This document shows positions 6,720-16,070 of a DNA stretch of 64,000 nucleotides, piece after piece (the first letter of the stretch is position 1; each line of letters starts with the position of its first letter). The translations under genes and the position numbers were made by a program. The DNA is taken from assembly GCA_048265065.1 (NCBI GenBank), contig JBLXCH010000004.1:12886-76885 (forward strand), in the 5' to 3' direction. Source of the DNA: Motiliproteus sp. (GTDB lineage: Bacteria > Pseudomonadota > Gammaproteobacteria > Pseudomonadales > Balneatricaceae). Below the pieces are notes generated by a model that was not told the DNA's origin, ran no database searches, and worked only from the letters and a program-made list of their open reading frames with translations.

Positions 6720-6893
6720 TTTGAAATCTCTCTATCTTTGTTTCTTAGTTACTAAATTCTGGATTACGAATTCATTCGGGCGGCATTGTAGCTGGAAATC
6801 AGATGTTTTTCAGGCGATTGTTCAAAAGTTAGTAAAAGGTCAGGGACTTGTCATGCCTAACCTTTGTGAAAAAATCTCAGAAAGCCCTTGTCA

Positions 6894-7358
6894 TTAAGGT
6901 TTGTTAAAAAACTTGCGGCCCAACAAATGATCGACTGAAAGTTTGCCGGGACCGAGTAACGCGACCATCAGTAACATGAACCCCCATAGCTGGTGGTCGT
7001 AAAATCCGCCATCCCAAATAGCTGGATAGGAAATTACGGCAATAATATTAAAGAGAAATAAAACGGCAGCGGCAGGTCGGCCAAGTAGACCTAACGCTAA
7101 TAATGGGGGCAATAGTAATTCTGTCGCTGTCCCCATGTATGCTGCAAGCTCAAAAGGTAATAGCGGGACGTTATATTCATATTCAAACAAAAATAAGGTG
7201 CTTTCCCAGTTGGCTATTTTTGCTTGTCCCGCTTTGAAAAAGGCCCAAGCGACAGTTAATCGAGCTAACAATAGAGCAAGAGGTAACAAAAAACGCTCTG
7301 CTTGGTGACTGAGGCATTGATATAGGTTGACGATTTTGCATGCGGCGTTCTTATTCAT
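6894..7358 (-). CDS. bufD: DoxX family membrane protein (BufD-like)
   Basis: LLARLTVAWAFFKAG, LFEYEY.VPLLP, GPGKLSVD; start moved to MNKNAA overlapping the DUF2063 stop. Confidence 0.85.
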   Translation of the reverse strand: MNKNAACKIVNLYQCLSHQAERFLLPLALLLARLTVAWAFFKAGQAKIANWESTLFLFEYEYNVPLLPFELAAYMGTATELLLPPLLALGLLGRPAAAVLFLFNIIAVISYPAIWDGGFYDHQLWGFMLLMVALLGPGKLSVDHLLGRKFFNKP

Positions 7359-8130
7359 AGGGTGACTCCTTCGCTTCATCGATAAAGCTGACAATAATGC
7401 GTTGTTGAATCCACAATTCTAAATAGACAGAAGCAGCTTCAGCGGTTGTTTCGGTCGTAGTTATTTGGGTAATGGTGCGCTGGTTTTCTAAAGCACCCAG
7501 TAATGCGGCTTGAGCTTCTGTGATTATTTCCATGGCAACGCTGTGATCAGGCTCTAGCCGGAAGAGCACAGTTTCTTGGGCCGTAAGGTCAATATTTTCA
7601 AAATCATTGTTGGTGACACCGCGCCAAATGGAGAGAGCTGCGCTGTTAAAGCGCTGCCACGCCATATTACGGTTAAGTGCGAAAACAATGTTCTCTTGCT
7701 CTATTGGGTTGAGTGTTTGTAAGTGCTCAAAAGGAAAAGGCTCAAAACGTTGAAACCGTCGATTACCTAAGCGATCTAGCTGCCACTCCAGAGCGGCTAC
7801 ATCTGTCAGGTAAGGCACTGTTGCAGCCGCTTCAAAGTTCGCAATAAAAAGGGGAAGATGTTGTCCGTAATGATCAAGCTGTGGGGATTTTGGCGGATTT
7901 GAGTCAATGTAGACGGAGGCAATGTGTGAGAAAAAATCATCGCCAACTAGTGCTAATGTAACGGGAAAAACAGCTTCTAAGTATTCTGTTAGGCTGACTC
8001 GGTAATTGTTTTTGTACACTTGGAGTAATTGCTCCATAGGCGCTGGCCCGATTAAGGCGTCATCAATAAAAGGGGTTGGACTTCCATTGATCGCCTCGGC
8101 GAATTGGCGCTGAAATTGGTCCGTATTCAT
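7351..8130 (-). CDS. bufC: DUF2063 partner / RRE-like protein (BufC/HvfC-like)
   Basis: Q..FAEAI, LQVYKNNYRVSLTEYLEAVFP.T.ALVG.DFF, YL.DVA.LEW; ATG at 8130 overlaps the DUF692 TGA (ATGA). Confidence 0.85.
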   Translation of the reverse strand: MNTDQFQRQFAEAINGSPTPFIDDALIGPAPMEQLLQVYKNNYRVSLTEYLEAVFPVTLALVGDDFFSHIASVYIDSNPPKSPQLDHYGQHLPLFIANFEAAATVPYLTDVAALEWQLDRLGNRRFQRFEPFPFEHLQTLNPIEQENIVFALNRNMAWQRFNSAALSIWRGVTNNDFENIDLTAQETVLFRLEPDHSVAMEIITEAQAALLGALENQRTITQITTTETTAEAASVYLELWIQQRIIVSFIDEAKESPYE

Positions 8131-8981
8131 GCCTGTACCTGCAATGGATCGCTGCTGCGGGATTGCCGTGTTTTGGCTTTGTCTGCCTCGTCCATCAGTA
8201 CACTTAAATCTGGAATATCGGTATCCCACTCAATCAGCGCAGGGGCTTCTGAGTATTGGCGAAAATGCTCAAATAACCTCCATACGGGGTCGCAGACACG
8301 TGAGCCATGGGTGTCGATGAGTATTTCACCGTTCTCTAATGGTTTGCGGGTAAAGCCGGCTAAATGGATTTCACTCACAGCGCGATGATTAATTTCTTGC
8401 AGGTAAGTTTCTGCGCTGTAACCGAGATTAACGCTGTTGACGTAAATATTGTTGAGGTCGAGCAATAGCTGGCAGCCAGTCCGTTCTTGCAGTGTATTGA
8501 GGAATGCCCATTCAGTGTAATCGGCCTCAGCGGCTAGCAGGTAGGTTGTTGGGTTCTCAATGAGAATAGGCTGCTGTAGCGTGTCCTGTACCTGAGATAC
8601 CTTGGCTGAAAATAAATCGAGCATTTCCTTGCTGTAAGGAATCGGTAGCAAGTCATTGAAGTATTGAGCGTTGTAGCTGCTCCAGCTGAGGTGCTCGGAA
8701 ACTAAACTCGGCTGATAATGGTTAATGAGGCTTTTAATACGCTGTAAATGATGACGGTTAATTGGATCGACTGATCCTAAAGAGAGACCAACCCCGTGAA
8801 ATGAAAGGGGGTAATATTGAGCAATTTCATCCAAACATTCACGAGAAAAACTATTTGGATCAAGGAAGTTTTCGCTATGGATTTCTAGCCAATCGATGTC
8901 AGGTCGTTGTTCGATAACTTGTCGATAATGCGGTGATCGAAGACCTATTCCGATTTGTTTGGCTTGAATACTCAGTTCCAT
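8127..8981 (-). CDS. bufB: DUF692 multinuclear non-heme iron oxidative enzyme (MNIO, BufB-like)
   Basis: IGIGLR, WLEIHSENF, FHGVGLSLGS, SEHLSW, IENP, LLLDLNNIYV, EIHLAG, IDTHG, IEWD. Confidence 0.95.
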   Translation of the reverse strand: MELSIQAKQIGIGLRSPHYRQVIEQRPDIDWLEIHSENFLDPNSFSRECLDEIAQYYPLSFHGVGLSLGSVDPINRHHLQRIKSLINHYQPSLVSEHLSWSSYNAQYFNDLLPIPYSKEMLDLFSAKVSQVQDTLQQPILIENPTTYLLAAEADYTEWAFLNTLQERTGCQLLLDLNNIYVNSVNLGYSAETYLQEINHRAVSEIHLAGFTRKPLENGEILIDTHGSRVCDPVWRLFEHFRQYSEAPALIEWDTDIPDLSVLMDEADKAKTRQSRSSDPLQVQA

Positions 8982-9062
8982 CGTCGCTTTCCTTTAAGGT
9001 TGGGTTGGCCGGTGCGGTTGCACCGAACCTACCCAGATGTAATACCAATGGTATAAACGTGC

Positions 9063-9320
9063 TTACATCTTTGCTGTTAAGCTACCGCCAGCAAGCTTTT
9101 CACACAGACCTTTAGGTAGTGCTACAAATGCATCACCTTGAGCGTCTTTCTTTGCAGTACCAGCACAAGAGCTGTTCTTCGTTGCGCAATCATTGTGGCC
9201 TGCTTTAGCAACGCCATAGCACTTCTCTTTTTCAGCAGCCATTGCTGGAGTAGCAACAGTTGCACCAAGAGCAATGATTCCAGAGATAGCAGCAGCGGCA
9301 GCGATGTGGTTCTTTTTCAT
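9063..9320 (-). CDS. bufA1: DUF2282 bufferin-type RiPP precursor with Sec signal peptide
   Basis: MKKNHIAAAAAISG...PAMA signal then EKCYGVAKAGHNDC..SSCAG...LPKGLCEKLAGG; 4 Cys; RBS AGGTGA favours ATG at 9320. Confidence 0.92.
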   Translation of the reverse strand: MKKNHIAAAAAISGIIALGATVATPAMAAEKEKCYGVAKAGHNDCATKNSSCAGTAKKDAQGDAFVALPKGLCEKLAGGSLTAKM

Positions 9321-9380
9321 TGTGTTCACCTATTACGTTGTGTGGGTTTGTTATGGCGCTTTGTTGCGCTCAGTAACTTA

Positions 9381-9407
9381 TACGTGGTGGTTTTCTAGGT
9401 AGATTCA
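9381..9407 (-). promoter_or_regulatory. Candidate ECF sigma promoter for the buf operon
   Basis: Minus strand TGAATC-N17-CGTA about 60 bp upstream of the bufA1 start; CGTA -10 is typical of several ECF groups. Confidence 0.5.
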
Positions 9408-9566
9408 GAAAACAGTGTTTTTTATTATTTATTGCTAAATAAGCCTAGCTTAATTCAAGCGAACTGCTTGCCTATTGGCGGCGAGTGAGTTCTAGGTGGA
9501 AGCATTAGGTAATGAGCGCAGCTGATATGCGTACATGAATAAGCTTGGTGGAAGCGGATAATAGAG

Positions 9567-9644
9567 GTGAGTAGTAAGAGTGAGTAGTAAGAGTGAGTAG
9601 TAAGAGCGAGTAGTAAGAGTGAGTAGTAAGGGTGAACAGTAGAA
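9567..9644. repeat. 13-bp tandem repeat GTGAGTAGTAAGA, 5 near-perfect copies plus 1 degenerate
   Basis: Units start at 9567, 9580, 9593, 9606, 9619, 9632. Confidence 0.95.
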
Positions 9645-9653
9645 ACAGGCAAT

Positions 9654-9680
9654 AAAAAGCCCAGCTTAACTGGGCTTTTT
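9654..9680 (-). terminator. Intrinsic terminator of the sigma/anti-sigma operon
   Basis: AAAAAGCCCAG-CTTAA-CTGGGCTTTTT. Confidence 0.9.
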
Positions 9681-9706: not shown

Positions 9707-10393
9707 TTAGAAGCGTATCCGCTTCCACTCTGTCCTATCGGATACTGGCCCCATTTGGTTTCCGCTTGGTGCACCTTCTGGACCTTCCATAGTGACAACG
9801 ATTTCACTTTCCATGAGTTTTTTCTTCCACTCAGGCTTAAGTTTCATTGTCCGTGTGACATTATCTCCGCCTGGCAAGAAGCCGAGGCTGATGGGTTCTT
9901 TTCCATCAATCATTAGCCAAGCTTCATAGACGGTGTTTTCAGGCATCTTTACCTCTTTGAGGCAGGTAATAGTTAGCTCCTCTTCTTTTAAGGAGGCGTT
10001 CATTACCCAGCCAGGGTCTTCTTTCTCATCTTTGATGAGTTGTACGTACATGTTGTCTGGTGTACTGAAAGGCTGGAACATCACGCCAATCGCTAATAAA
10101 AAGGCAAAAGACATTGCTGCCAGCGGCTGCCAGCTGAACCATGACCACTGGGGCTTAGGTTTAGTTGCTTTCTTAATAGTCGACCAAACGTGAGCAGGTG
10201 GCGAAACAGGAGTTAGACTTTCGTTAAGAACGTCTAGGTGCTCACGCCATTGTGCGACTTCATCTTGAGCATCTTGGCTAACCGCCAACAAAGACTCAAA
10301 ACGTGCTTTTTCAGTTTTGTCTAGAGTCCCCAGTACGTACTCTGCAGCCATTTGGTTACGCTGGTCTGGGTCGCTCAAATCGAACTCATGCAT
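9707..10393 (-). CDS. RskA-type anti-sigma factor
   Basis: N-terminal AAEYVLGTL anti-sigma domain, one TM helix, C-terminal YEAWL and VTMEGPEGAPSG..GPV. Confidence 0.85.
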   Translation of the reverse strand: MHEFDLSDPDQRNQMAAEYVLGTLDKTEKARFESLLAVSQDAQDEVAQWREHLDVLNESLTPVSPPAHVWSTIKKATKPKPQWSWFSWQPLAAMSFAFLLAIGVMFQPFSTPDNMYVQLIKDEKEDPGWVMNASLKEEELTITCLKEVKMPENTVYEAWLMIDGKEPISLGFLPGGDNVTRTMKLKPEWKKKLMESEIVVTMEGPEGAPSGNQMGPVSDRTEWKRIRF

Positions 10394-10944
10394 GTTTGCA
10401 ACCTCGCCAGTCCACGTCGAATCCAGGTTTTTACAGTGCCTAAGGCAATCTCTGTCTTATCAGAAACACCTTGATGACTTAGCCCATCAAAGTAAGCAAG
10501 CTCTATACATTGGCGTTGCTCTTGTGGGATTTCACCTAAACAACGATGAAGCTGCTTGGTGTCTTGCATGTGGCTAACCTGTTGTTCTTGACCGGCACTT
10601 CCATCTTCTAGTGTATCTAATGCGTCATCACCATCATGCAAATCGCTATGGCGGTTACGGCGCAGCATATCCAAAGCTTGGTTTCGCGTTATTGTATTCA
10701 TCCATGTTTTGGCTTTGGCTTTGGCGCAGTCGTAACTGCCTGCATTTCGCCAAACACTCATGTAAACCTGTTGAAGGCAATCTTCCGCGAGGCTCTGGTC
10801 TTTTAATATACGCAGGGCGACACTGAATAGATTCGATGATGTGAGTTCATAAAGAGATTGTAAGTCTTGATGACGATCTTGCGCGCAGCCTTGAAGAAGT
10901 CCGGCTAGCTTTAACTGCGTTTCGTCGCTGTTTGTATTCGTCAT
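10375..10944 (-). CDS. ECF sigma-70 factor, SigK-like
   Basis: LYELTSSNLFSVALRIL, AEDCLQQVYMSVW, WMNTITRNQALD, region 4 LGTVKTWIRRGL; overlaps the anti-sigma gene. Confidence 0.93.
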   Translation of the reverse strand: MTNTNSDETQLKLAGLLQGCAQDRHQDLQSLYELTSSNLFSVALRILKDQSLAEDCLQQVYMSVWRNAGSYDCAKAKAKTWMNTITRNQALDMLRRNRHSDLHDGDDALDTLEDGSAGQEQQVSHMQDTKQLHRCLGEIPQEQRQCIELAYFDGLSHQGVSDKTEIALGTVKTWIRRGLARLQTCMSSI

Positions 10945-11179: not shown

Positions 11180-11368
11180 TTATTTTTGCTTCTGCTTTGC
11201 CACTTTACGCTTTAATGCAACCGCAGAGACAGCAACGATAGAAACTACGGCGAAAATGCTGAGCGCATGAATAGGATTGCTTAACCAGTGACTGTGATCA
11301 TGACCGGCGTGAGCAAGTGCTGCCGTTGAAGTAAAGCCAGTAAAAGCAGCCGTTAAAATACGTAACAT
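11180..11368 (-). CDS. Small His-rich membrane protein (signal peptide, HAGHDHSHW, TM helix, basic tail)
   Basis: 62 aa ORF with RBS GAGG; AALA|HAGHDHSHW cleavage pattern. Confidence 0.8.
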   Translation of the reverse strand: MLRILTAAFTGFTSTAALAHAGHDHSHWLSNPIHALSIFAVVSIVAVSAVALKRKVAKQKQK

Positions 11369-11692: not shown

Positions 11693-12301
11693 TTACCAGT
11701 CGATACCAGCTTGGGCTTTAATACCTGCTTTGAAAGCATGTTTGATATTTTTTACTTCGGAAACAGTATCTGCGAGTGCTTCAAGCTCATCCGGTAAAGG
11801 ACGTCCGGTGATGACCACGTGTTGATGTTCAGGACGATTTTTCAATAAAGTTAGTAACTCTTCTAATGGTAAATAATCAAACTTATACATATAAGTGATT
11901 TCATCTAGAATCACGAGATCAAAGTCAGGGTTGGTTAGCATGGTTTTTACATGCTCAAACGTTCCGGTTGCCGCCGTGGTATCGGCTTCGCGGTCTTGAG
12001 TGTTCCAGGTGAATCCTGTGCCCATGGTTTTGAACGTGACGTCAGGCAGCTTCGCAAAAAACTTTTCTTCGCCGGTTTCCCATTTCCCTTTAATAAATTG
12101 GACAATGCCGACTTTTTTGCCGTGGCCAAGTGCGCGAGCGACCATGCCAAATGCGGAGCTGCTTTTGCCTTTTCCTGTGCCGGTGAGGATTAACAGCACA
12201 CCGCGTTCAATTTTTGCGTCAGCAACTTGTTGATCAATTACATCTTTCTTTCGTTGCATGCGATTTTTGTGACGTTGGTTGCGATCTTCTGAATCACTCA
12301 C
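11693..12301 (-). CDS. cobO: Cob(I)yrinic acid a,c-diamide adenosyltransferase
   Basis: LTGTGKGKSSSAFG, VQFIKG, MGTGFTW, ILDE, VVITGR, KHAFKAGIKAQ.GID. Confidence 0.96.
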   Translation of the reverse strand: MSDSEDRNQRHKNRMQRKKDVIDQQVADAKIERGVLLILTGTGKGKSSSAFGMVARALGHGKKVGIVQFIKGKWETGEEKFFAKLPDVTFKTMGTGFTWNTQDREADTTAATGTFEHVKTMLTNPDFDLVILDEITYMYKFDYLPLEELLTLLKNRPEHQHVVITGRPLPDELEALADTVSEVKNIKHAFKAGIKAQAGIDW

Positions 12302-12329
12302 GTAATGTTCCTTTTTTTAATTTTTTACT

Positions 12330-13376
12330 CTATGGCTTACTGACTGTTTTATCGAGTGCTGTAGCAAGCGTTTGCATTTCTTTGGGTGTTGCGGGCAGTC
12401 CGAAGCGAATAAGTTGATGTTCTGGGAATGCGCGAACTAGAATCCCTTGCTCTCCTAAACGAGCATAGGTTTGTTCTGCTGATTCGACCCGAACTGTTTG
12501 AAAAAGTGCTGTACCCATCGCCGGTGCAGAAAAGTGTTTTGTTAGCACTAGTGCCAACTCTGTTGCAGTTTTTTTCAATAAAGTTACATTTTTTTGTTGC
12601 CACTCGTTATCCATGAAAGCCTGTTTAGCGACCCAGCGAGTAGGGGTGCTGAGTGTCCAAGGCCCGAGTGCGTGATCAATTTTTTTGAGTAAATCAGGTT
12701 CTGCGAAAACGGAGCCACAACGAACACCGGCTAACCCGAAAAACTTGCCAAGAGAGCGGAGTACGATCAGGTTTGGCTGAGGGCAAAAGGGCGTTAAGCT
12801 GAGTTCGGGCTGGGTATCAATAAAGGCTTCATCGACAATAAGCCATCCTCCTTTAGCTGACAAGGTTTCATGCCAGTCGAGCAGCTGTAACGGATCAACC
12901 GCTCGCCCTGTAGGGTTGTTTGGGTTGACGACAATCAGTACGTCTATGACATCTAAATCAATATTTTTTTCATCACATAGAATGGTCTTGTGTCCGGCCT
13001 TTTCCCACGCAAGTTCATGTTCATAATAGCTGGGTGAGAATAGGCCAATAGTTGAGAGTTGGGGGCGTAGAGCGGGTAAAAGTTGAATAACGGCTTGAGA
13101 GCCTGCTGTCATTAACAATTGATGACAGCCATAGTATTCTGCGGCGGCAACTTCCAGTCCATCATTATGTTCAGGTAGGCGTGCCCAGCACTGGGCAGGA
13201 ATGTCCTGAGGCTGCCACCCGTGTGGGTTAATTCCTGTGGATAGGTCTAGCCATTCTTCAGCTGGAATACGAAAGCGTTGGATAGCCTCCTGTAGACGGC
13301 CACCATGAAGGTGTCCTGCTGGCTGAAACGGAGGTTGAGTGACTAACTTATCCATCGGTGAAGCTTGCTTTATCAA
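12330..13376 (-). CDS. cobD: L-threonine-O-3-phosphate decarboxylase (CobD; CobC in Pseudomonas nomenclature); start may be ATG 13355
   Basis: HGGRL, WLDLSTGINP, VNPNNPTG, IVDEAF, LRSLGKFFGLAGVRCG. Confidence 0.92.
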   Translation of the reverse strand: MIKQASPMDKLVTQPPFQPAGHLHGGRLQEAIQRFRIPAEEWLDLSTGINPHGWQPQDIPAQCWARLPEHNDGLEVAAAEYYGCHQLLMTAGSQAVIQLLPALRPQLSTIGLFSPSYYEHELAWEKAGHKTILCDEKNIDLDVIDVLIVVNPNNPTGRAVDPLQLLDWHETLSAKGGWLIVDEAFIDTQPELSLTPFCPQPNLIVLRSLGKFFGLAGVRCGSVFAEPDLLKKIDHALGPWTLSTPTRWVAKQAFMDNEWQQKNVTLLKKTATELALVLTKHFSAPAMGTALFQTVRVESAEQTYARLGEQGILVRAFPEHQLIRFGLPATPKEMQTLATALDKTVSKP

Positions 13377-13457
13377 TATTCGCTGAGGGTGGTGTTATTT
13401 GTGTTTGTTTCGCTGCTGTGTTGATCGTAAAAGCTGATTCCTGACCATGCCTGCTGA

Positions 13458-14399
13458 TTAAAGTAACCATAGACATACTCCTTCAATTACGGCGGTTGCT
13501 CCTAACCAAGCAATAACCGCATGATTCACTAGGCTTGAGGCGCGCGGAATGTCTGCAGCTATAACATCGCGACCACAACCCAGGACAGTGCGTTGTTTGC
13601 GTACTCCGTGATAGATTGCATCACCACCCAGTTTGATGTTGAGGGCGCCAGCTCCCGTTGACATGATTACCCCACCGTTTGGGCTAGGGTAGTGTTTGGC
13701 TTGGTTTTTCCAACAGTTGAGAGCATCTTGTCGATGCCCTAGAAATGCTAAGCTGAGCGCCCCAAGGCGAGCGGGAATCCAGTTTAATAGGTCATCGAAT
13801 TTAGCCGCAGCCCAGCCGAAATTATTGTATCGTTCAGTCCTGTAGCCCCACATAGCATCAAGCGTGTTGCTCAAACGGTGTAGAAGCGCTAGAGGCAAGC
13901 CGCCAATGACAAACCAAAAAAGCGTCGCGAAACAGGCATCGTTGCTGTTTTCTAAAATAGACTCAACGGTGGCAGTGGTAACCTCTTTGCTGGACATGTC
14001 TGCTGTTTCTCTACTGACAATCATAGAGACGGCTTTTCGTGCCTCCGTTAAATCACCGATTTTTAATGGCCTATAAATGTTCATTGCGTGTTCGTGCAAG
14101 CTTTGCCGCCCAAGACAGAAGTAAAGCCCAATGATTTGTACGGTGACAGCTAGCGTTGTAGAGATATCGTCAATGCCACTAATTATGGCCTCCAGAATTA
14201 GAGCCGGGACTATGGTTAACGTGATCACTGCTATCACACCAACACTACGAGATTGAAGTGATGAGTGTTGCTTAAAGAGGTTGAGCAGCTGCTCTGTTTT
14301 ATTGGCAAACGTGCCGAAGTAAATTAGCGGGTGATGATTCTTGATCTCGCCGTAACGCCAGTCGAGTAGTACGGCCAACAGCATTGAGATAAAGGTCAT
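13458..14399 (-). CDS. cbiB: Adenosylcobinamide-phosphate synthase
   Basis: HPLIYFG, VSMIVSRET, ESILEN.ND, NTLDAMWGY, DDLLNWIPARL, SPNGG. Confidence 0.95.
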   Translation of the reverse strand: MTFISMLLAVLLDWRYGEIKNHHPLIYFGTFANKTEQLLNLFKQHSSLQSRSVGVIAVITLTIVPALILEAIISGIDDISTTLAVTVQIIGLYFCLGRQSLHEHAMNIYRPLKIGDLTEARKAVSMIVSRETADMSSKEVTTATVESILENSNDACFATLFWFVIGGLPLALLHRLSNTLDAMWGYRTERYNNFGWAAAKFDDLLNWIPARLGALSLAFLGHRQDALNCWKNQAKHYPSPNGGVIMSTGAGALNIKLGGDAIYHGVRKQRTVLGCGRDVIAADIPRASSLVNHAVIAWLGATAVIEGVCLWLL

Positions 14400-14474
14400 A
14401 TTCTTGATCGAGTGCGTAATAAGTAGAGCTCATCATACGCTTTGACTAGACAAATCTAAAGGGCAAGGTAGTCT

Positions 14475-14497
14475 AACGGCATTGAACGAATGCCGTT
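14475..14497. promoter_or_regulatory. Inverted repeat between divergent cbiB and cobQ
   Basis: AACGGCATT-GAACG-AATGCCGTT. Confidence 0.45.
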
Positions 14498-14528
14498 CCA
14501 CTAGTGATTCACTAAACAGAGAATTTTC

Positions 14529-16070
14529 TTGAAAAACCCTCATACATTGATGATACAAGGCGCCACATCCGATGCGGGGAAGAGTGCGTTGGTTACCGGT
14601 ATTTGTCGCTTACTGCAGCGCAATGGTTACCGTGTTGCACCGTTTAAACCGCAGAATATGGCATTAAATAGTGCAGTCACCATTGATGGTGGTGAAATAG
14701 GACGAGCGCAAGCGGTTCAGGCTCAAGCCAGTGGCATAGAGCCACATACAGACATGAACCCCATTTTACTTAAACCGAATACAGATACTGGTGCGCAGGT
14801 GATCATCAATGGGCATCCTGTCGGTGATATGGATGCTCGAAGTTATCATGCGTTTAAGCCCAAAGCGATGAGTGCTGTGTTGGCCGCGTATGAGCGATTG
14901 AAAAAAAACTACGACGTTGTGTTGGTTGAAGGTGCTGGGAGTCCCGCGGAAATTAACTTACGGGATAAAGATGTCGCAAATATGGGGTTTGCTGAAGCGA
15001 TTGATTGCCCCGTACTGATTATGGCTGATATTGATCGAGGCGGTGTCTTTGCTCATTTAGTCGGCACTTTGGAGTTGCTGAGTCAATCTGAGCAAGATCG
15101 CGTTCAAGGGTTTGTGATCAACAAATTTCGTGGTGATGTTGGATTACTAACGCCAGGTAATGATTGGCTCACGCAGAGAACAGGGAAACCTGTTGTTGGG
15201 GTTCTACCTTTTTTGAAAGGACTTTATTTAGAGGCTGAAGACGGGCTTTCACAGCAATGGAGTGGGGTTGAAAATCATCAGGCTGCAGAGGGCTCTGGTG
15301 CTCCAGAGAGTGATCAGCGGTTGAAGGTGGTTGTTCCTGTGCCGCCAAGAATTTCTAATCATACGGATTTTGATCCACTGCGTTTGCATCCATCCGTGGA
15401 TTTTTCCTTTGTGCGCCAGGGAGAAGCATTGCCGTCAGCTGACCTGATTATTTTGCCAGGCTCCAAAACGGTGAGTGCTGATTTGATCTGGCTTCGTGAA
15501 CAGGGGTGGGAGCAAGCAATTCAGAAGCATCTACGCTATGGCGGTAAGTTGTTAGGTATTTGCGGAGGTTTTCAAATGTTAGGCCAAGCGATTATAGACC
15601 CTGACAAAGTGGAAGGGGATCGCGAGTCTATACAAGGCTTAGGCTTGCTGGATTTTACCACGACACTCTATCCACAAAAGCAGTTACACCGAGTTGAAGG
15701 AACGCTGGCGTTAGATACCGCAGGCAAGTTGTCGCCTAGTGCCGTTATTGGTTACGAAATCCACGCAGGGCTGAGCAAAGGGAGAGCGCTTGATAAACCA
15801 TTGGTGCGGTTAAATGATAGAAATGATGGTGCTATTTCAGACGATTTACAGGTAGCGGGTACCTATTTGCACGGTATTTTTGAGGCGCCGGAAGCATGCG
15901 AAGCGTTGCTGGCTTGGGCAGGTCTGAGTAATAAAGCGCCAGTAATGGACTTTAATCGCATTCGAGAAGCGGGAATCAATACAATGGCTGATGCGGTTGA
16001 AGACTCTATCGGTTTGTCTATGTTGCTCAAGCTGTTGGCCATCGAGTCTATGCCCTCAAAAGCTCTTTAA
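14529..16070 (+). CDS. cobQ: Cobyric acid synthase
   Basis: [60 protein letters not shown]; TTG start. Confidence 0.97.

Follow-up and report, generated by a model that had tools for sequence, protein, structure and literature searches.

A probable bufA1BCD bufferin operon in a Motiliproteus-like marine bacterium, with a candidate promoter shared with a methionine-sulfoxide reductase gene

Bufferins, also termed captophorins, are among the largest families of peptides made on the ribosome and modified after translation (RiPPs); they occur in about half of Pseudomonadota reference genomes and more than 20,000 precursors have been catalogued (PMC13097082). The closest described system to the locus considered here is buf1 of Caulobacter vibrioides (bufA1B1C1D1, CCNA_03363-03366), in which a four-cysteine DUF2282 precursor that carries a Sec signal precedes a multinuclear non-haem iron-dependent oxidase (MNIO), a DUF2063 protein and a DoxX protein. 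For Caulobacter Buf1 it is established that the inner cysteines become 5-thiooxazoles, that the outer cysteines form a disulfide and that the peptide binds copper and confers a copper phenotype (PMC11626156); 5-thiooxazole formation has been generalised across MNIO/DUF2063 clusters (PMC13097082). Transcription in Caulobacter depends on the extracytoplasmic function (ECF) sigma factor SigF, whose targets include a YedY/MsrP gene besides buf1 and buf2 (PMC3511200). In Haemophilus influenzae and Neisseria, RpoE2 and SigE, respectively, drive msrAB together with a doxX/MNIO operon (PMC7907618). Here we compare these systems with a locus of the same four-gene order, found in a 64,000-nucleotide stretch (hereafter the window) of a Motiliproteus sp. 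draft genome (GCA_048265065.1, contig JBLXCH010000004.1, positions 12,886 to 76,885 of the forward strand).

Both in kind and in chemistry, the locus is very probably a functional bufA1BCD operon, that is, a Buf1/DUF2282-type bufferin cluster of a Motiliproteus-like marine gammaproteobacterium. An earlier sequence-only reading had placed a DUF2282 precursor, a DUF692 MNIO, a DUF2063 protein and a DoxX protein in this order between 6894 and 9320, and had suggested profile searches for the first three families; family matches for all four genes on the minus strand bear it out:

9063-9320, minus strand: bufA1, bufferin precursor of 85 amino acids, PF10048 (DUF2282/BufA1)
8127-8981, minus strand: bufB, MNIO (DUF692) maturase of 284 amino acids, PF05114, 333 bits
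7351-8130, minus strand: bufC, DUF2063 (HvfC/BufC) partner of 259 amino acids, PF09836, 74.9 bits
6894-7358, minus strand: bufD, DoxX-family membrane protein of 154 amino acids, PF07681, 49.6 bits

The precursor covers the whole PF10048 profile (positions 1-53 of 53) with 82.1 bits against a cut-off of 22.4 (E 2.8e-23). All four reading frames are intact, and four neighbouring genes on one strand with such E-values exclude a chance arrangement.

The coupled stop/start overlaps described by the earlier reading exist at two of the three junctions. At bufB/bufC the start codon of bufC lies over the bufB stop (ATGA, 8127-8130), and the start of bufD lies inside bufC, 8 nt being common to both genes; a GAAGGAG ribosome-binding site stands 7 nt ahead of the bufD ATG. 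The description fails for bufA1 and bufB, which are separated by an 81-nt gap (8982-9062). The assumed start of bufA1, the ATG at 9320, is retained: this codon and its AGGTG ribosome-binding site are conserved in six genomes, and the alternative GTG at 9329 falls within that conserved site.

Read directly from the sequence rather than with a dedicated predictor, the N-terminus of BufA1 consists of MKKNH, a hydrophobic core and PAMA/AEKEK, where the slash marks the presumed cleavage point. Residues 1-28 (9237-9320) thus read as a Sec-type signal cleaved after Ala28, a residue conserved in 99% of 120 homologues. The core would comprise 57 residues (AEKEKC...SLTAKM; 68 in Caulobacter Buf1) with cysteines at precursor positions C34, C45, C52 and C73, that is, core positions 6, 17, 24 and 45. 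Its calculated monoisotopic mass, if unmodified, is 5741.81 Da. A Sec signal and four cysteines had been claimed before, and both claims are borne out. A protein search with BufA1 gave 1371 matches, the best 120 of which share 65-92% identity with it. Within these 120 homologues each cysteine is kept in at least 99% and 118 have exactly four; in a 43-sequence subset all four are invariant. The core motif EKCYGVAxAGxNDCATxxSSCAGT..D.Q.DAF...PKGLC..GGS is near-invariant across the 120, and the signal peptide and C-terminus are variable. A search of solved structures with the BufA1 sequence returned no match.

Many of the homologues, from Oceanospirillum, Motilimonas, Agarivorans, Vibrio and Psychromonas, appear in NCBI or UniRef as ‘BufA1 family periplasmic bufferin-type metallophore’, and those bearing the NCBI name include proteins 74-76% identical to the precursor in the window. 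Clusters of these marine genera share the bufA1BCD order. The sequence of the core is typical for a marine gammaproteobacterial subgroup in which conservation is tight. The sequence-only reading set the mature peptide apart from those of Caulobacter, which is true and unremarkable. Older names such as ‘predicted integral membrane protein’ persist on other homologues and would cast the DUF2282 product as an unmodified small membrane or signal-peptide protein, with its neighbours acting on something else. This is scarcely credible, since the cleavable signal is the only hydrophobic stretch of BufA1 and direct biochemistry on family members has superseded such names (PMC11626156, PMC13097082).

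The maturase is assigned with similar clarity. BufB scores 358.9 bits against the NCBIfam model NF050167 (MNIO_BufB, ‘MNIO family bufferin maturase’; cut-off 310) and falls well short of the thresholds set for the HvfB, ApyH, MbnB and ChrH models. Across 14 homologues of 31-100% identity, residues H62, H97, E142, D175, N178, H206, D223, H225, E251 and D253 are invariant, with a spacing that we take to fit the metal ligands of MbnB. By its E-x-D motif, D253 corresponds to the catalytic base D249 of FonB (PMC13097082). The best match among solved structures, by sequence, is the DUF692 protein 3BWW.

BufC gave no match in a sequence search of solved structures and was settled at the level of fold. 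Its AlphaFold2 model is confident (predicted local distance difference test, pLDDT, 88.6; predicted template-modelling score, pTM, 0.82), and the top Foldseek matches are TglI (8HCI, 8HI7) and NGO1945 (3DEE), each with probability 1.00. TglI is the partner of the MNIO enzyme TglH, and NGO1945 is the partner protein in gonophorin biosynthesis. PF09836 covers the N-terminal domain of BufC and the whole-protein model matches TglI and NGO1945, the pattern of a DUF2063 partner with a C-terminal domain resembling a RiPP recognition element. Close homologues already carry the NCBI name HvfC/BufC. Given the invariant residues of BufB and the match of the BufC fold to MNIO partners, the pair looks intact. 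Homologues of BufD are 149-150 amino acids long.

Two other MNIO systems were considered and ruled out. The EGKCG captophorins (oxazolin of the H. influenzae hvf locus, gonophorin of N. gonorrhoeae and fontiphorin) resemble this cluster in having an MNIO and a DUF2063 protein that install 5-thiooxazoles, a DoxX protein, an association with copper and ECF control shared with msrAB (PMC13097082, PMC7907618). They differ in that their precursors carry EGKCG repeats and are not DUF2282 proteins, and in that their anti-sigma factor is a small cytoplasmic zinc-binding (ZAS) protein. The BufA1 precursor has no EGKCG repeats and BufB scores 231 against the HvfB cut-off of 360, which excludes an HvfA/oxazolin-type captophorin. 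Methanobactin clusters (MbnABC) likewise pair an MNIO-fold enzyme with a partner and yield copper ligands derived from cysteine, but methanobactins bear oxazolone/thioamide groups, are secreted and serve copper acquisition. BufB reaches 65.9 on the MbnB model TIGR04159 (cut-off 325), which excludes a cluster of that type, and MbnC is only a weak fold match to BufC.

We propose the following course of events, in which the modification chemistry and copper binding are carried over from Caulobacter Buf1 by homology. BufA1 would be translated with its Sec signal, and in the cytoplasm the multi-iron oxidase BufB and the peptide-binding partner BufC would use O2 to convert core Cys17 and Cys24 to 5-thiooxazoles. 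Sec would then export the peptide, with cleavage after Ala28, and the outer Cys6 and Cys45 of the core would form a disulfide. The folded 57-residue product is predicted to sequester periplasmic copper through its thiooxazoles. BufD would be an accessory membrane protein; its Caulobacter counterpart is dispensable.

The distribution of the cluster is patchy. A close bufB (60-64% identity) is present in only six of 19 congeners, and the window carries the precursor gene once, against two or three times in relatives. Both facts could suggest that the cluster is an accessory remnant, silent or non-functional in this genome. We consider this very improbable: against it stand four intact frames, conserved catalytic and cysteine residues, and conservation of the promoter (described below), the ribosome-binding sites and the coupling overlaps. 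A functional operon is the far better account. The genome is a 3.57-Mb draft in 189 contigs (95.7% complete) with one DUF2282 gene and one MNIO gene; the second (Buf2) cluster of Caulobacter has no equivalent in it. A BufB scan of genome contigs returned only three distant loci of 42-45% identity, in a search from which records near the genome itself were possibly excluded. In one congener (G005) the cluster occupies the syntenic site, between cobO and ytoQ. Tandem bufA1 genes, a feature of some marine clusters, number three in that congener (L019, 6538-7466), two in another (G006; L020) and two in an Agarivorans (L061, 5001-5567); their products are 78-84% identical to the peptide of the window.

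Directly upstream of the cluster and on the same strand lie two regulatory genes:

9707-10393, minus strand: RskA-type transmembrane anti-sigma factor of 228 amino acids, PF10099 (RskA_C) 41.4 bits, overlapping the sigma gene by 19 nt
10375-10944, minus strand: SigK-like ECF sigma factor of 189 amino acids, with Sigma70_r2 and r4_2 domains

An ECF sigma/anti-sigma pair also adjoins Caulobacter buf1. Its regulon there extends to a methionine-sulfoxide repair gene, YedY/MsrP (PMC3511200), and the regulon proposed below does so with msrAB. The families differ. The anti-sigma factor of the window matches only PF10099 and has one transmembrane helix, whereas that of Caulobacter is NrsF (PF06532, DUF1109), the partner of SigF (PMC3511200). 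The promoters differ as well, TGAATC-N17-CGTATA here as opposed to GTAACC-N16-CGAA. A SigF/NrsF-regulated buf1 locus of the Caulobacter type was therefore rejected on both counts.

By sequence, the best match of the sigma factor among solved structures is Mycobacterium tuberculosis SigK (4NQW, E 4e-24), and the resemblance to the SigK-RskA system (ECF18/19) includes the RskA_C anti-sigma factor with one transmembrane helix. Cys134 and Cys184 of the sigma factor align with two SigK cysteines that are separated by 50 residues, as Cys133 and Cys183 are, and both are conserved in five genomes. In M. tuberculosis, Cys133 and Cys183 form a redox-sensitive disulfide (PMC7509140, PMC7826278). The two systems are not identical: the sigma factor scores 141 bits on the NCBIfam SigK model, below its cut-off of 226, and is not assigned to an exact ECF group for that reason; and the mycobacterial regulon comprises mpt70/mpt83, in place of the bufA1BCD and msrAB proposed here. 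Among cluster-bearing congeners, the sigma/anti-sigma pair adjoins the cluster in four of five. It is not adjacent to the Oceanospirillum, Vibrio and Agarivorans clusters examined; Oceanospirillum multiglobuliferum has a SigK/RskA-like pair on another contig (47% and 38% identity).

Between the regulators and bufA1 lies a sharply defined candidate promoter:

9379-9407, minus strand: candidate ECF-type bufA1 promoter, with -35 element TGAATC (9402-9407), a 17-nt spacer and -10 element CGTATA (9379-9384)

TGAATC-N17-CGTATA is found upstream of bufA1 in all six congeneric genomes, amid DNA that is otherwise unalignable. Upstream of O. multiglobuliferum bufA1 the motif reads TGAATC-N17-CGTAAT, and it was not found upstream of bufA1 in one Vibrio and one Agarivorans cluster.

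The same motif precedes msrAB, which encodes a signal- or membrane-anchored MsrA-MsrB fusion, and lies 54-124 nt upstream of that gene in the sigma-carrying congeners. It is exact in five of them (G000, which is the genome of the window, and G004-G007); the sixth (G012) departs from it at one position (TGCATC). Five congeners without the sigma factor (G001, G003, G008, G010 and G011) do not have the motif upstream of msrAB. An exact match within 300 nt is expected by chance with a frequency of about 3e-4. In the genome of the window, TGAATC-N17-CGTAA stands 67-87 nt before the start codons of both msrAB (contig C80, 5877-7031, minus strand) and msrP (C6, 2724-3740, minus strand). The msrP motif is found in this genome only and is not kept in relatives; msrP remains a candidate. 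Genome-wide, a relaxed form of the pattern gave 23 matches where about 20 are expected by chance, and such matches are for this reason believed only where they are conserved in relatives, as the msrAB site is. When 11 promoter sites were made into a weight matrix of full width, the spacer was over-fitted; the top extra match of this matrix, on contig C17, falls at or within a reading frame for DUF2064, next to a gap in the assembly, and was rejected as a regulon member.

Two arrangements seen in relatives may be recorded beside these sites. In O. multiglobuliferum a stand-alone msrA (PMSR) lies 1.2 kb upstream of bufA1 in divergent orientation (L059, 3213-3827), a further physical link between bufferin and Msr genes. 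In Motiliproteus coralliicola (G012; L021, 3600-6770) the anti-sigma gene is parted from bufA1 by inserted genes for an EamA/DMT transporter, an MFS transporter and a regulator of the MerR family. A DMT transporter is likewise part of the RpoE2 regulon in H. influenzae (PMC7907618).

These data can be joined in a model. From its position, the adjoining SigK-like sigma factor would probably read the TGAATC-N17-CGTATA promoter to transcribe the operon, would be restrained by the RskA-like transmembrane anti-sigma factor, and would also drive the anchored msrAB gene. The bufferin operon would then be one arm of a SigK/RskA-type redox-switch regulon that co-induces envelope methionine-sulfoxide repair in this lineage, a proposal for and against which we find the case evenly balanced. 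Copper, oxidants or both may act as inducer, in view of the redox pair of SigK type, the link with msrAB and a related marine cluster that copper does not induce.

Several observations weigh against the reading of the locus as a copper-binding bufferin operon under this sigma factor. At the protein level, (i) the AlphaFold2 model of BufA1 places C34 in a strand (31-35) and C73 in a helix (73-76), as described for Caulobacter BufA1, but is unreliable (pLDDT only 46, from a shallow alignment of 43 sequences of 65-87% identity) and is not relied on; (ii) BufC, with 20.8 bits, falls far short of the 142 bits of the HvfC model; and (iii) BufD falls below the NCBIfam HvfX cut-off (46 against 80 bits). 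As to regulation, (iv) the congeners are related, and counts of motif and sigma co-occurrence are not independent; (v) in five genomes the 400 nt upstream of the sigma gene hold no copy of the motif, even with two mismatches allowed, a departure from Caulobacter, so that the link between sigma factor and motif is one of co-occurrence only and autoregulation is not supported; and (vi) a related MNIO/DUF2063 cluster in marine Microbulbifer is not induced by copper (PMC12538549).

The last point bears on another account, in which the chemistry is the same and the main role is defence of the envelope against oxidants and electrophiles (HOCl, H2O2, thiol stress), the thiooxazole peptide being one arm of a SigK/RskA redox regulon. 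The promoter motif common to bufA1 and msrAB in sigma-carrying congeners (and to msrP in this genome only) speaks for it, as does retention of the cysteine pair that serves M. tuberculosis SigK as its redox switch (PMC7826278), and in H. influenzae and Neisseria the ECF sigma factor that drives msrAB with the doxX/MNIO operon is induced by HOCl or H2O2 (PMC7907618). Yet the sole phenotypes shown for DUF2282 bufferins are related to copper (PMC11626156), and the MerR-family regulator directly upstream of bufA1 in M. coralliicola hints at control by metal. Copper itself oxidises the envelope, moreover, so the two roles are compatible. As the main function, oxidant defence is in our judgement unlikely, and copper buffering by a Buf1-type peptide is preferred.

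The sigma/anti-sigma family of the window would be the third to be tied to bufferin/MNIO and Msr genes, after the SigF/NrsF and RpoE2/SigE types. An association of RskA or PF10099 with bufferins does not appear in the text or supplements examined of the MNIO landscape paper, and a literature search on DUF2282 and ECF factors found only the Caulobacter SigF work. On comparative evidence alone, the SigK/RskA wiring with msrAB would go beyond published descriptions, as a modest variant. If the regulon proposal is true, three or more unrelated ECF/anti-sigma families have taken up the combination of bufferin and Msr independently of each other, namely those of Caulobacter (SigF/NrsF), of Haemophilus and Neisseria (RpoE2/HrsE) and of the present lineage (SigK/RskA). 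This would suggest that the selected function is protection of envelope proteins from copper- or oxidant-driven damage, and not copper storage as such.

The cluster itself is an ordinary addition to a family that is large, already named and annotated automatically. Alone it adds little, since its peptide belongs to a tightly conserved marine subgroup already named by NCBI. The useful part is its regulation, that is, the candidate promoter together with a sigma/anti-sigma family other than that of Caulobacter, both shared with a methionine-sulfoxide reductase gene. Through the promoter one could establish whether it is copper, oxidants or both that induce bufferins in marine bacteria.

Three predicted RNA structures accompany the operon:

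9354-9372, minus strand: small stem-loop with a GC stem (GCGC/GCGC), at what is predicted to be the 5' end of the bufA1 leader
9002-9034, minus strand: GC-rich stem-loop without a U-tract in the bufA1-bufB spacer, found by folding
6835-6865, minus strand: terminator-like stem-loop followed by UUUUAC, 29 nt past the bufD stop; weak (z = -1.1 over 86 nt)

A hairpin occurs at the position of the leader element in six of six genomes, with differing stem sequences; we infer only that it may have a role in the bufA1 leader. The 85 nt at 8982-9066, which take in the spacer stem-loop, fold at -28.4 kcal/mol (z = -3.0; two of 200 shuffles were equally stable), and a GC hairpin of other sequence lies at the same place in five congeners. 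From its position 3' of bufA1, this stem-loop may act as a partial terminator or an RNA-stabilising element that favours the precursor transcript, and in the model above it would probably raise the precursor transcript over that of the enzymes. The hairpin beyond bufD has a 5-nt terminal loop closed by a 2-bp helix behind 1-nt bulges. It was not picked up by a consensus terminator scan (loop of 3-8 nt, contiguous stem of at least 5 pairs with at least 3 G-C, and at least 5 T in an 8-nt tail); the contiguous-stem and T-tail settings, and not the loop range, are the more likely cause of the miss.

Some features of the surrounding DNA may be added. The 13-nt unit GAGTAGTAAGAGT, which has no further occurrence elsewhere in the genome, is repeated in tandem six to seven times at 9556-9654 of the window, in the stretch that separates the stop codon of the anti-sigma gene from the bufA1 promoter. 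An open reading frame of 62 amino acids (11180-11368, minus strand) is flanked by cobO and the sigma gene. It encodes a signal-like N-terminus, a histidine-rich stretch (HAGHDHSHW), one transmembrane helix and a lysine-rich tail, matches nothing in Pfam or NCBIfam, and does not appear at the syntenic loci in five congeners. Upstream of the regulators, 11693-16070 holds the cobalamin genes cobO (an NCBIfam/tblastn reading), CobD/CbiB and a cobQ-like amidotransferase. Genes beyond these encode a fabV-like enoyl reductase, a cytochrome bd oxidase, MarR and LysR regulators and malate synthase G. No gene of either set is copper-related.

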